From: a virus
Taxonomy: Duplodnaviria; Heunggongvirae; Uroviricota; Caudoviricetes
Length of the DNA stretch: 64,000 bases
IMG/VR virus record: IMGVR_UViG_3300023371_000071
Direction: 5' to 3' (one strand)
Position 1 is the first letter of the stretch; every line of letters starts with the position of its first letter. Of the stretch, positions 17,088 to 19,406 are shown in pieces. The translations under genes and the position numbers were made by a program. The notes below the pieces were generated by a model. The model saw only the letters and a list, made by a program, of their open reading frames with translations, was not told the origin of the DNA and made no database searches.

Positions 17088-17792
17088 ATGAAAGTATGGA
17101 CAACATTACTTGGTACAGATGATTATTTAGAAGCGGTTTTAACTTTAGAGGAAAGTCGTAAAAGAGTAGCTTCTAAATATCCGCTGGTAGTTATTTGTTT
17201 TAATGATTTAGATTATAACACATATGAATCTTTAGATCAGGCAAACATTAAATATGAAACTTTCCCAAGAGAGTTGTTTCAAGGAGAGAAACGAAACAAA
17301 GATTATTCTGTGACTATAGGCAAATTTTACGCTTATGTTCTAAAAAACGTTTCTCGTTTTTGTTTTATTGATGCAGATTCATTTTTTGTAGAAAACATAG
17401 ATTATATATTAGATATATCAGTACCTGTTTTCTTCGTGTTTGATCCATCATTTAGAAATGGCTATACAGAAAATATGAACTGTTTAACAGGATGTATTTT
17501 TTCTGACAATACATCACAAGAAAAATTTGATTGTGCATTTACATATAAAGAACAATGCCGCGAAGATGAACAGGTGCTACCAATCTTGGCAGATAAGAGT
17601 AAATCTCATATGAGAATTTGTTATCGTGATTGGACATTGCGTCATCAAATGGTGGTATTTCACGAAAGTGCATATTCAACTGCTCATAAATTTTGGAATC
17701 GACCTAATTATGACAGACATGCTTTTCTAAATGAAGTAATTTATTTTTTTAAACATGATTGGTCTTATATTAAGTCGATACCTGAAGAATAA
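17088..17792 (+). CDS. GT8-family (glycogenin-like) glycosyltransferase, paralog 1
   Basis: N-terminus LLGTDDYLEAVLTLEESRKRVASKYPLVVI matches the glycogenin N-terminus; DxD motif FIDADSFFVENID. Confidence 0.6.
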   Translation: MKVWTTLLGTDDYLEAVLTLEESRKRVASKYPLVVICFNDLDYNTYESLDQANIKYETFPRELFQGEKRNKDYSVTIGKFYAYVLKNVSRFCFIDADSFFVENIDYILDISVPVFFVFDPSFRNGYTENMNCLTGCIFSDNTSQEKFDCAFTYKEQCREDEQVLPILADKSKSHMRICYRDWTLRHQMVVFHESAYSTAHKFWNRPNYDRHAFLNEVIYFFKHDWSYIKSIPEE

Positions 17793-17796
17793 ATTT

Positions 17797-17832
17797 AGGC
17801 ACACACAGCAATTCTTCTTTAAGAAGAGTGTG
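17797..17832 (+). repeat. ACAGCAA-hairpin element (copy 2)
   Basis: ggcacacACAGCAAttcttctttaagaagagtgtg. Confidence 0.4.
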
Positions 17833-17929
17833 GGTTCAAATCCCACAGAATGCGCAAAAGCAGCATTTTTGGCGGAATGGTTTACGCGATTGACTGAAAA
17901 TCAATTTTCTTTATAATGTGCCTAGTCTT

Positions 17930-18003
17930 AGGGGTTTACGATAATGGTAGTCTAGCGGTCTCCAAAACCGTAAGTGGTGGTTCAAATCCATCAACCCCTG
18001 CCA
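17930..18003 (+). tRNA. tRNA-Trp(CCA)
   Basis: acceptor aggggtt/aacccct, anticodon arm gcggt-ctccaaa-accgt, T arm ggtgg-ttcaaat-ccatc, CCA. Confidence 0.65.
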
Positions 18004-18006
18004 TAT

Positions 18007-18081
18007 TGGCGATTGGTGTAATTGGCAACACGCCGGACTCTGACTCCGTTGTTCTAGGTTCAAGTCCTAGATCGCCAGCCA
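18007..18081 (+). tRNA. tRNA-Gln(CUG)
   Basis: acceptor tggcgat/atcgcca, D gtgt/acac, anticodon arm ccgga-ctctgac-tccgt, T arm ctagg-ttcaagt-cctag, CCA. Confidence 0.65.
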
Positions 18082-18092
18082 AGAGGTATATT

Positions 18093-18389
18093 ATGCAGGA
18101 CGACAAGATTTTAGAATGGATTCACCGCAGATTCCCCCATGATAGTAATTGGTTAAATGGTAATTGCTATCAATTTGCTCTCCTGCTCAATTCTACTTTT
18201 GAGGGAGAGATTGTATATGACCCAATTGATGGACATTTCCTTTTTCTTGCGAGCAACGGTCAGTTTTATGACTGGTCTGGTGTGCGGATATACAGTGGGA
18301 CTTATCAAAAGGCATTTGTCAAGTGGGCTGACTACCGACAGAAAGATCAACTCCACTATGATCGGGTGATGCGAGACTGTGCGTATTAA
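18093..18389 (+). CDS. hypothetical protein
   Basis: ATG 18093 after AAGAGG; the ORF-track start 17916 lies inside tRNA sequence and is rejected. Confidence 0.45.
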   Translation: MQDDKILEWIHRRFPHDSNWLNGNCYQFALLLNSTFEGEIVYDPIDGHFLFLASNGQFYDWSGVRIYSGTYQKAFVKWADYRQKDQLHYDRVMRDCAY

Positions 18390-18480
18390 ACCTCGATTAT
18401 GTCAGCATGGTTGCCGACGATGCTTTTGGCTGCGGAAAATCACTCGTCCCGGTCGGAAATATTGGGCATGTACATATTGA

Positions 18481-18555
18481 CCCCTCGTAGTCTAACGGAG
18501 AAAACAAGGGCCTTCTAAGCCTTACTTCTGGGTTCGATTCCTAGCGGGGGGACCA
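18481..18555 (+). tRNA. tRNA-Arg(UCU)
   Basis: acceptor cccctcg/cgggggg, anticodon arm agggc-cttctaa-gcctt, T arm ctggg-ttcgatt-cctag, CCA. Confidence 0.65.
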
Positions 18556-18556
18556 T

Positions 18557-18632
18557 GGTTCCTTAGCCAAGCTGGTAAGGCGGCGGATTGCAAATCCGTT
18601 ATTCACTGGTTCGAGTCCAGTAGGAACCTCCA
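18557..18632 (+). tRNA. tRNA-Cys(GCA)
   Basis: acceptor ggttcct/aggaacc, anticodon arm gcgga-ttgcaaa-tccgt, T arm actgg-ttcgagt-ccagt, CCA. Confidence 0.7.
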
Positions 18633-18662
18633 TATTTATTTTGAGAAAAAGGTGGGATATAC

Positions 18663-19406
18663 ATGAGTCAAAATTCTCTTGATCCATCTCGTTTTGCTTA
18701 TGTTACATTATTAAGCTCTGAAGATTATTTAGATGCAGTTTTAGTATTGCATGAAAGCCTGAAAGATGTGCAGGCTAAATTTCCTTTAATATGTGGAGTT
18801 ACTAAAAATTTAAATTCCACACAACTTATCACAAAATTGATGAATTCTGGTATTCATATTGAATGGATTGAACCTTTGGAATATAGTGCTGGGACACAAG
18901 CAAAATATCCAGGAAAGGTAGTATTAAATACTGCATCCAAGGTTAATTTGTTTAATTTAGTAAATTATGATAAACTTTGTTACATTGACGCTGATACGAT
19001 TGTCGTCAACAATATTGATGATGTATTCGATCGGCTGGATGGTTCAATGGTAAAGTTCCAGAATGATGATTATGGTTTTACTGGACTATTTGTATTTAGC
19101 CCTCGTAATCATCGAGCAGATTTTTATTTGCATCTATTGAAGAATTTTGATTGTTTTGACGGTGATCTAATTGGTTCTTTATGGTTCCACACTCGTACAA
19201 GTGCAGATCACTGGATTAGTGATGACTATTGCAAACATTATAATAACGATGTAAAACGCAAAGGTAATCATAACGTCCGTGTTTGGCATTTCTGCAATGA
19301 GGGTTGTAAACCTTGGAAACCTGCAGATCGAGAAAACATGAAACCCACTTATGTGCTTCAAAAGTACGATGATCTTTTGGCTCGCGTTCATGGTATGTTT
19401 GATTGA
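18663..19406 (+). CDS. GT8-family (glycogenin-like) glycosyltransferase, paralog 2
   Basis: YVTLLSSEDYLDAVLVLHESLKDVQAKFPLI compared with glycogenin [25 protein letters not shown]...; DxD motif YIDADTIVVNNIDDVFD. Confidence 0.65.
   Translation: MSQNSLDPSRFAYVTLLSSEDYLDAVLVLHESLKDVQAKFPLICGVTKNLNSTQLITKLMNSGIHIEWIEPLEYSAGTQAKYPGKVVLNTASKVNLFNLVNYDKLCYIDADTIVVNNIDDVFDRLDGSMVKFQNDDYGFTGLFVFSPRNHRADFYLHLLKNFDCFDGDLIGSLWFHTRTSADHWISDDYCKHYNNDVKRKGNHNVRVWHFCNEGCKPWKPADRENMKPTYVLQKYDDLLARVHGMFD

Follow-up and report, generated by a model that had tools for sequence, protein, structure and literature searches.

Two GT8-type glycosyltransferase genes in exchangeable cassettes between the tRNA genes of an uncultured gut/rumen phage

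The DNA discussed here is a stretch of 64,000 nucleotides (nt; 64 kb) from a virus genome (IMG/VR record IMGVR_UViG_3300023371_000071), referred to below as ‘the window’. Its transfer RNA (tRNA) island contains two open reading frames (ORFs), at 17088–17792 and 18663–19406, both on the + strand, precisely where the original prediction had put a pair of paralogous, glycogenin-like glycosyltransferases (GTs) of family GT8. We name the first protein GT-A and the second GT-B; the terms ‘GT-A fold’ and ‘GT-B fold’, which denote structural classes, are a separate usage. GT-A is a GT8-like protein of 234 amino acids (aa), whose gene stops at TAA, and GT-B is a glycogenin-like GT8 protein of 247 aa, whose gene stops at TGA; neither gene contains an in-frame TAG. 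On balance, we lean to the view that the two are UDP-sugar transferases, housed in exchangeable cassettes in the gaps between tRNA genes, that would build a glycan on a protein or on a wall polymer, and not on DNA or tRNA. The enzyme class itself is ordinary; the instructive part is how the cassettes behave, and the occurrence of alleles free of TAG codons beside others laden with them. As the evidence stands, this is an accessory gene pair and not a new mechanism.

The two proteins as members of GT8

Both proteins share an N-terminal block (VWTTLLGTDDYLEAVL in GT-A; AYVTLLSSEDYLDAVL in GT-B), and the motifs quoted in the prediction, FIDADSF in GT-A and YIDADTIV in GT-B, are where they should be. 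Across the N-terminal 112 residues the two are 35% identical (E = 7e-14). GT-B is, judged from its sequence, a clear member of GT8, belonging to the glycogenin/Gat1 branch. It passes the gathering cut-off of the Pfam GT8 family, PF01501 (26.6 bits versus 24.3), with its N-terminal half alone aligned, and 27 of the 31 members found of its own family bear a precomputed PF01501 assignment. The single sequence matches human glycogenin-2 with E = 6e-14. A profile of 30 family members does so with E = 5.5e-27, in an alignment that covers the complete catalytic domain, HF..KPW motif included, and matches Gat1 (6mw5) with E = 9e-20.

GT-A is a divergent member of the family with a variant H...KFW motif. 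By itself it has no Pfam match at E ≤ 1, and so falls below the PF01501 threshold, and it matches glycogenin only with E = 0.14. We assign it to GT8 because a profile of its eight-member family matches GT8 structures (Gat1, 6mw5, 9e-13; glycogenin, 9e-11), because of its 35% identity to GT-B, and because of its fold. The predicted GT8 membership thus holds at the level of a Pfam search for GT-B, and by way of family profile and fold for GT-A. Searches of PHROGs and NCBIfam with the two proteins returned marginal matches only. The closest relatives of GT-A outside its own family are the proteins P0139 and P0039 and the GT8 of locus L016 and its like (L numbers denote loci on other phage contigs), all of which rank above the GT-B family. 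Sequence comparison places GT-A and GT-B as deep paralogues, from two old subclades of GT8, rather than as products of a recent duplication.

Predicted structure and catalytic residues

AlphaFold2 (AF2) models of both proteins (pLDDT 90.6 for GT-B and 89.4 for GT-A) are single-domain GT-A folds, with an N-terminal, nucleotide-binding, Rossmann-like half. Glycogenin is the top Foldseek match of both in the Protein Data Bank (PDB), with E = 4e-15 for GT-B and 2e-12 for GT-A, and TM scores to glycogenin are 0.75–0.82 and 0.63–0.69, respectively. In the viral structure library BFVD, the top matches are viral GT8-like proteins (E = 6e-14 to 4e-13). These, the P13-like proteins of baculoviruses and mimiviruses and the GT8 domains of giant viruses, come from eukaryotic viruses, unlike GT-A and GT-B, and are often multidomain.

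The DxD motif (D95/D97 in GT-A; D109/D111 in GT-B) is invariant in all aligned members of both families. Toward its C-terminus GT-A carries the variant motif F-H192-E...H-K201-F-W203. The corresponding set in GT-B comprises K93, D109/D111, D166-G-D168, H209 and K216-P-W218, of which H209 and K216-P-W218 align with the HF..KPW of glycogenin. In a joint alignment (GT-A/GT-B numbering), K79/K93, the DxD, an N.D motif, K201/K216 and W203/W218 are invariant, and G135/G141, D160/D166 and H192/H209 are nearly so. We take the conserved residues to be the UDP, Mn2+ and sugar contacts, by homology with glycogenin, and both proteins therefore look catalytically competent; they are probably active enzymes. 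Homology also predicts what they should do: as soluble, single-domain GT-A-fold enzymes of CAZy family GT8, each would bind a UDP-hexose and Mn2+ by means of the DxD, the C-terminal His and two Lys, and would transfer the sugar, with retention (i.e. in alpha linkage), to a hydroxyl of the acceptor.

Glycogenin (GYG1/GYG2) is the best sequence and fold match of GT-B, and the best fold match of GT-A. It shares with them a GT-A-fold catalytic domain of ~250 aa, the DxD, the His and Lys of an HxxGxxKPW-type motif and the equivalent of D163, and it too is a soluble protein of the cytoplasm. GT-A and GT-B are, nevertheless, not glycogenins in the strict sense, because the acceptor-tyrosine segment is unconserved and the C-terminal tail is lacking. 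Glycogenin glucosylates itself on a tyrosine (Tyr195 of GYG1); in neither phage family is there an invariant Tyr after Y189, and the segment from LPxxY to HF..KPW is variable and gapped. The extension that binds glycogen synthase is not present, as GT-A and GT-B end ~30 residues past KPW; glycogenin chains are 333–501 aa long. Further differences are the replacement of Q164 by Gly-Asp in GT-B, the lack of conservation of the D160 equivalent in the GT-B family, and the setting: the genes are phage-encoded, with no glycogen context visible.

The UDP-galactose:glucoside-Skp1 alpha-galactosyltransferase Gat1 (AgtA; 6mw5) is the top profile match of the GT-A family and a strong match of the GT-B family. 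In the cytoplasm, Gat1 lengthens a glycan that is linked to protein, and we propose a role of this kind for the phage GTs. Identity to it is only ~17–18%, however, and both Skp1 and its glycosylation pathway are eukaryotic.

Cassettes in the tRNA array

Both GT genes lie, as had been predicted, within a tRNA island: 33 tRNA genes form an array spanning 9603–26497. The placement was thought unusual, but in a group of related phages it proves to be conserved as the site of this GT8 clade. The pair occupies the same positions in the close relatives L001/L068, in L003 and in L067. Locus L027 lacks GT-A. There, tRNA-Leu(UAG) runs directly into the spacer that follows GT-A in the window, and comparison of the two reveals GT-A as a clean indel of ~720 bp, starting 7 nt past the tRNA, between flanks that are 93–98% identical. 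In the window, this cassette (17073–17793, +) consists of a 15-nt leader, the coding sequence (CDS) and 1 nt more, and 22 nt separate its left anchor, tRNA-Leu(UAG) (16982–17065, +), from the GT-A ATG. GT-B is anchored on the left by tRNA-Cys (18557–18632, +), which is 99–100% identical in L027 and L003. The GT-B CDS itself is 59% identical to that of L027 and 70% identical to that of L003 at the nucleotide level, in surroundings where flanking tRNAs are 85–100% and non-coding spacers 72–94% identical. The amber-suppressor tRNA that follows, tRNA(CUA), is 100% identical in L003 and L027.

Synonymous divergence (dS) gives the same picture. Between the window and L068, dS is 1.5 for GT-A and 1.35 for GT-B, versus 0.065 for the neighbouring cREC gene and 0.16 for the YunG-like gene. 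The ratio of non-synonymous to synonymous divergence (dN/dS) of the GTs is 0.05–0.13, with dS saturated. Both GTs are under purifying selection. High dS beside low-dS neighbours, together with these ratios, points to old, maintained alleles that have been recombined into a young backbone, and not to fast protein evolution. The combinations of GT-A and GT-B alleles differ among L003, L027, L067 and L068; L067, for example, has a TAG-rich GT-A together with an L027-type GT-B, and L027 has that GT-B with no GT-A. The GTs behave, then, as exchangeable accessory cassettes between tRNA genes. Related phages would swap them by recombining within tRNA flanks that are nearly identical, with purifying selection acting on them all the while.

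Different ages or separate acquisition had been proposed for the two genes on the grounds that GT-A is markedly more AT-rich than its paralogue. Their histories do differ, inasmuch as GT-A is an indel and belongs to another subclade, but base composition is not the evidence for this. The G+C content (GC) is 30.5% in GT-A and 34.4% in GT-B (Fisher p = 0.12), and at third codon positions (GC3) it is 18.7% and 24.6% (p = 0.12). Neither gap is significant, and both genes are AT-rich outliers: the median GC3 of 32 other CDS of the window is 38%, and only 2 of the 32 lie below 25%. We dropped the GC gap as a sign of separate acquisition, and used the dS contrast and the indel in its place.

Cassettes of this sort could also be passengers that do nothing for this phage, selfish inserts or inserts in decay, for which the tRNA array serves as a recombination hot spot. 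GT-A is present in some relatives and absent from others, the GC3 values of the GTs are the lowest in the window, and the island bears other variable small genes, such as a ThiF gene whose product is 32% identical between the window and L003. We give this explanation very little credence. Decay is at odds with a dN/dS of 0.05–0.13 over saturated dS, with catalytic residues that are kept in every allele and with ORFs that are intact in all contigs. Even the TAG codons of recoded alleles (see below) fit read-through as glutamine: in the GT-A alignment, to which the comparison is confined, columns with TAG align with Gln at 25%, versus a background of 2.9%.

Transcription of the cassettes

The gap of 22 nt between tRNA-Leu(UAG) and the GT-A ATG leaves no room for a promoter of GT-A's own. 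GT-B begins after a leader of 30 nt that follows tRNA-Cys and contains a Shine–Dalgarno sequence, AAAGGTGGG. Promoters are recognizable elsewhere. A 9-mer, TGATATAAT, occurs 23 times in the window, on the + strand only, where 1.2 copies are expected, and it is embedded in a conserved promoter of ~50 nt with the form TTGAnn-17-TGATATAAT-ATATATGTAAGGTTGAGA. Examples (+) are at 1091, 4147, 15443, 19423, 20024, 47510 and 60146. The conserved transcribed leader suggests a common 5′ untranslated region or regulatory element. The copy nearest upstream of the GTs (15423–15451, +; TTGATT-17-TGATATAAT) probably drives a polycistron in which tRNA-Ile and further tRNAs are followed by Leu-Leu-GT-A-Trp-Gln-YunG-like-Arg-Cys-GT-B. 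The promoter of tRNA(CUA) is another copy (19403–19431, +), which starts right at the stop codon of GT-B. From this layout, and from the gaps of 22 and 30 nt, we infer that the GTs are translated from mixed tRNA–mRNA polycistrons, and thus that they are probably co-transcribed with the tRNAs. The cassettes, self-contained in their short inter-tRNA gaps, would probably be transcribed along with the tRNAs from a phage promoter of the host-sigma70 type, and their mRNAs presumably released by tRNA processing.

The non-coding spacer after GT-A (17794–17929, +), which is 93–94% identical in L027 and L003, contains a T-arm-like hairpin (GTGTGGGTTCAAATCCCACA) and, upstream of tRNA-Trp, a sigma70-like TTGACT-16-TATAAT (17890–17917). 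The motif CACACAGCAAT recurs in this spacer and after the promoters at 15443 and 19423. The spacer stays 93–94% conserved across phages whose GT-B proteins are 48% identical, and could represent a small RNA or act as a signal for processing. Rfam also finds tRNA matches that ARAGORN does not report. Three, of 115–126 nt (41–47 bits), lie at 7745–7870, 7877–7994 and 8289–8403, and a partial one at 24359–24423. These could be intron-containing or atypical tRNAs, or tRNA-like RNAs.

Recoded alleles and the suppressor tRNA

TAG does not act as a stop codon in the phage. Of the 48 CDS compiled from the + strand of the window, 31 end in TAA, 17 in TGA and none in TAG; there is a tRNA(CUA); and two recognizable genes, with TAG in frame, need it read through. 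The ThiF gene (21244–21954) has one at 21376, and reading through it raises the Pfam score from 47.8 to 90 bits. The GIY-YIG ORF (55439–56398) has five, at 55601, 55634, 55679, 56177 and 56246. The phage probably reads TAG as a sense codon, in the manner of genetic code 15, and Gln is the likely meaning. Phages recoded at TAG are known from gut microbiomes (bioRxiv 10.1101/2021.08.26.457843; PMC10607447).

The GT genes occur in both states. In-frame TAGs number none in the GT-A alleles of the window and L068, seven in that of L003 and nine in that of L067, and one falls on the conserved Gln of an EDEQ motif. GT-B-type orthologues have from none to at least 10. In the L014- and L016-type GT8 genes it is TGA that occurs instead, at positions of Trp, the W of KPW among them. 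In L014, in which TGA is read as Trp, four GT8 paralogues and two GT4 genes lie at 1207–2049 (−) and 6203–11084 (+), with 2–10 in-frame TGAs per GT gene; five of the six stand in tandem behind a tRNA(UCA). In L016 (6319–10681), another TGA = Trp locus, tRNA(UCA) and the GT8 gene directly follow a lysis cassette made up of a GH25/CW_7 endolysin, a holin-like protein and an HSP20-like protein.

The suppressor tRNA(CUA) of the window (19471–19561, +) starts 64 nt after GT-B. It is 91 nt long. Positions A1 and C72 are mismatched, the discriminator is G73 and the D-arm is Gln-like, but the variable arm is long, unlike that of normal Gln tRNAs, which are type I. This unusual long-arm class, 91–93 nt, is found also in L003, L027, L010, L029, L031, L034 and L035, and at 28 IMG/VR loci (L039–L066). 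Its members have a weak 1–72 pair, G73, a D-arm that resembles that of phage tRNA-Gln(CUG) and a variable arm that usually includes a conserved CTCTGA.

This proximity raises the question of whether GT8 takes part in the code change, by modifying the suppressor tRNA, release factor 1 (RF1) or an aminoacyl-tRNA synthetase so as to aid the reading of TAG as Gln. tRNA(CUA) follows GT-B at a distance of 37–105 nt in the window, L003, L027, L029/L035, L034, L067 and L068, even as protein identity ranges from 38 to 89%. In phages that read TGA as Trp, the GT8 (L016) or the GT8 array (L014) starts 21–27 nt after tRNA(UCA), and the tRNA island of the window adjoins a block of RNA-repair-type genes. 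Starting from the tRNAs gives a different answer. A pattern for the long-arm tRNA(CUA) recovered the 28 IMG/VR loci, 25 of which have at least 1 kb of upstream sequence; none of the 25 has GT8 beside the tRNA, and the single GT8 seen lies 4.8 kb away. Coupling of GT8 to suppressor tRNAs as a general rule, which we had followed through seven lineages, was rejected on this result. Consistent adjacency to a suppressor tRNA, as a phage ‘code-change module’ should display, is confined to one sub-lineage and the two TGA-recoded loci. Many GT8 orthologues, moreover, require suppression for their own translation, no tRNA lies within 10 kb of the L005 homologue, tRNA(CUA) is served by a promoter of its own, the GT proteins are acidic, and we know of no GT8 that acts on RNA. 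We regard a function in the code change as very unlikely. The specific version in which a glycogenin-like GT glycosylates RF1, the glutaminyl-tRNA synthetase (GlnRS) or the suppressor tRNA, and so favours TAG as Gln, is a shade more doubtful still. Given the survey, L005, the separate promoter of tRNA(CUA) and the need for suppression, adjacency looks to be a matter of lineage synteny, and of cassettes tending to settle in gaps between tRNAs.

Nature of the acceptor

We return to the reading that we favour, namely that GT-A and GT-B would work one after the other, or as a pair, and furnish a macromolecule with a short glycan in alpha linkage. The acceptor would be a protein, of phage or host, or else a glycopolymer in the wall of a Bacillota host, and not DNA or tRNA. 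We prefer such a glycan because glycogenin and Gat1 act on protein or on protein-linked glycan, because relatives occur together with further GTs, and because the proteins are acidic. Of the four GT8 and two GT4 genes of L014, five form a single tandem run; GT8 has GT2 neighbours in L005 and L007; and among the best 150 of 4,932 profile matches there are tandem GT8–GT8 proteins, as well as proteins in which GT8 is fused to a GT2, GT64, Nucleotid_trans or TPR domain. The isoelectric points (pI) of the two GTs are 5.3 and 5.9, and family medians are about 5–5.7, which argues, weakly, against a nucleic-acid acceptor. Phages do decorate proteins and wall polymers by means of variable, exchangeable GT genes. 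Mycobacteriophage virion glycosylation and the prophage enzyme TarP, which acts on wall teichoic acid, are examples, although the enzymes belong to other families (GT2/GT4). Virion glycosylation is mentioned in PMC10955285.

The tandem GT8–GT8 fusions, which hint at joint action, are P0041, P0114 and P0139. The N-terminal copy in P0041 has no DxD (NIN instead), which suggests a catalytic plus regulatory pair; alternatively, the fusions might be read-through artefacts of gene calling. On the 169-kb phage contig L007, a GT8 homologue comes directly after a group formed by a YcaO gene (588 aa), a GT2, a 91-aa ORF and radical-SAM-like genes (4205–10777), an arrangement reminiscent of a cluster for modifying a ribosomally synthesized and post-translationally modified peptide (RiPP) or a glycopeptide.

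Lipopolysaccharide (LPS) is an unlikely target. The bacterial GT8 enzymes that build it (LgtC and the WaaI/J type) share the family and the retaining chemistry, and Foldseek matches LgtC with E of about 1e-9, but glycogenin is a far closer relative than they are. The host, moreover, is likely to be Gram-positive. Promoters of the sigma70/sigmaA type, replication genes resembling those of SPbeta (YorF/YorH), a DNA polymerase III alpha and the GH25/CW_7 lysin of L016 all point to the Bacillota.

DNA as the acceptor was suggested in the original prediction, which noted that retaining GTs of phages often modify DNA, by glycosylating hydroxymethylated bases, or host targets, and proposed looking for a hydroxymethylase. 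In this scheme the GTs would work like the glucosyltransferases of T-even phages, allowing the phage to evade restriction. Two GTs per phage with exchangeable alleles do bring to mind the variation of agt and bgt among T-even phages; T4 has an alpha- and a beta-glucosyltransferase, and alleles vary between related phages. The window also contains genes for one-carbon and S-adenosylmethionine (SAM) metabolism, a formate–tetrahydrofolate (THF) ligase (45773–47434) and a SAM synthetase (26379–27611). Even so, we consider DNA hypermodification unlikely. The T4 enzymes have the GT-B fold, with two Rossmann domains, belong to unrelated families and require dCMP hydroxymethylase; the models here are of single-domain GT-A folds, as GT8 enzymes are. 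The DNA inspected comprises the window and the next 10 kb downstream, ~74 kb in all and less than half of a genome of ~170 kb, a coverage that leaves the DNA scheme some probability. Within the part inspected there is no dCMP hydroxymethylase or other thymidylate-synthase-like hydroxymethylase, no TET/JBP protein and no base kinase. Replication and nucleotide genes are present in this region, for a topoisomerase, ligase, RNase H, helicases, RecJ, DNA polymerase III alpha, guanylate kinase and NrdD. Just beyond the window, the phage encodes a GmrSD_N (DUF262) protein, which also speaks against the DNA scheme. Both GT families are acidic and, in relatives, accompanied by other GTs. DNA-modifying enzymes are typically early, and many orthologues carry up to nine or more in-frame recoded stops, which suggests late expression. 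In-frame recoded stops have been linked to late genes (bioRxiv 10.1101/2021.08.26.457843).

Several points also weigh against a glycan on protein or wall polymer. The clusters of multiple GTs lie in relatives that are 29–48% identical, in which function may differ, and in the window the GTs are not beside other genes for glycan or NDP-sugar synthesis. The AF2 alignment for GT-A included GT-B relatives, and so its model is not independent evidence. That GT8 recurs beside suppressor tRNAs in several lineages is only partly accounted for, and the ~74 kb inspected are less than half of the genome. Finally, the data fit a protein and a wall polymer equally well, and donor and acceptor alike are proposed from homology and context.

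Distribution and significance

The phage is an uncultured gut/rumen phage with no close cultured relative. Megablast of the region against GenBank phages finds no match, and its topoisomerase subunit is at most 45% identical to that of any GenBank phage record; identical or near-identical genes are found on metagenomic contigs of 168–174 kb. The GT8 clade has a similar distribution. It comprises about 106 clusters (at 50% identity) with E ≤ 1e-30 among 1.84 billion representatives. A tblastn search with GT-A and GT-B of 50,697 GenBank phage records found no homologue. A two-motif scan of 185,579 GTDB species-representative genomes turned up 63 matches to the patterns but no relative, and at that sensitivity the family seems absent from cellular genomes. 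A metagenome scan for further loci yielded only nine, most of them short. This lineage of GT8 is found almost exclusively in large, uncultured gut and rumen phages, and the clade appears to be restricted to phages. We found no literature on GT8 genes in phage tRNA arrays or in recoded phages.

If the interpretation is right, this is an uncharacterised clade of phage GT8 enzymes belonging to large, stop-codon-recoded phages of the gut and rumen. It would provide a clean example of tRNA genes used as conserved recombination anchors for swapping alleles of accessory enzymes. A single gene with both TAG-free and TAG-laden alleles would be useful for studying how recoding spreads, and knowing the acceptor could uncover a hitherto unseen layer of glycosylation in gut Bacillota, whether of phage or of host.

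Other genes of the region

Within the tRNA island, the window also encodes a cREC domain protein and two PD-(D/E)XK_5 nucleases (20065–20379; 13695–14126 / 23775–24218). Metabolic genes are well represented. The formate–THF ligase noted above (45773–47434, +) is full-length and scores 793 bits, and there are, besides the SAM synthetase (26379–27611, +), a formate/nitrite transporter (3426–4019, −), a CitMHS-type transporter (9787–11133, +) and a chorismate mutase (CM_2; 11130–11387, +). The formate/one-carbon pair is found also in the distant relatives L010 and L016.

The RNA-repair-type block that follows the tRNA island is dense and occupies 28687–44425. It includes a DUF2828/DUF7788 ‘RNA-binding’ protein, an RlaP nucleotidyltransferase, an RNA ligase and three calcineurin-like phosphoesterases. 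An 823-aa homologue of the Major Vault Protein (MVP), with the MVP shoulder and a vault repeat, is encoded there as well, along with two DUF5662 proteins, an SPFH/flotillin protein and an AAA_33 kinase-like protein. Approximately 3–5 kb past the 3′ end of the window (L036, 12572–14346), the GmrSD_N (DUF262) protein, of 334 aa, is accompanied by a DAHP_synth_1 protein (KdsA/DAHP synthase-like, 249 aa), and the two are flanked by a PIF1-like helicase and DNA polymerase III alpha.

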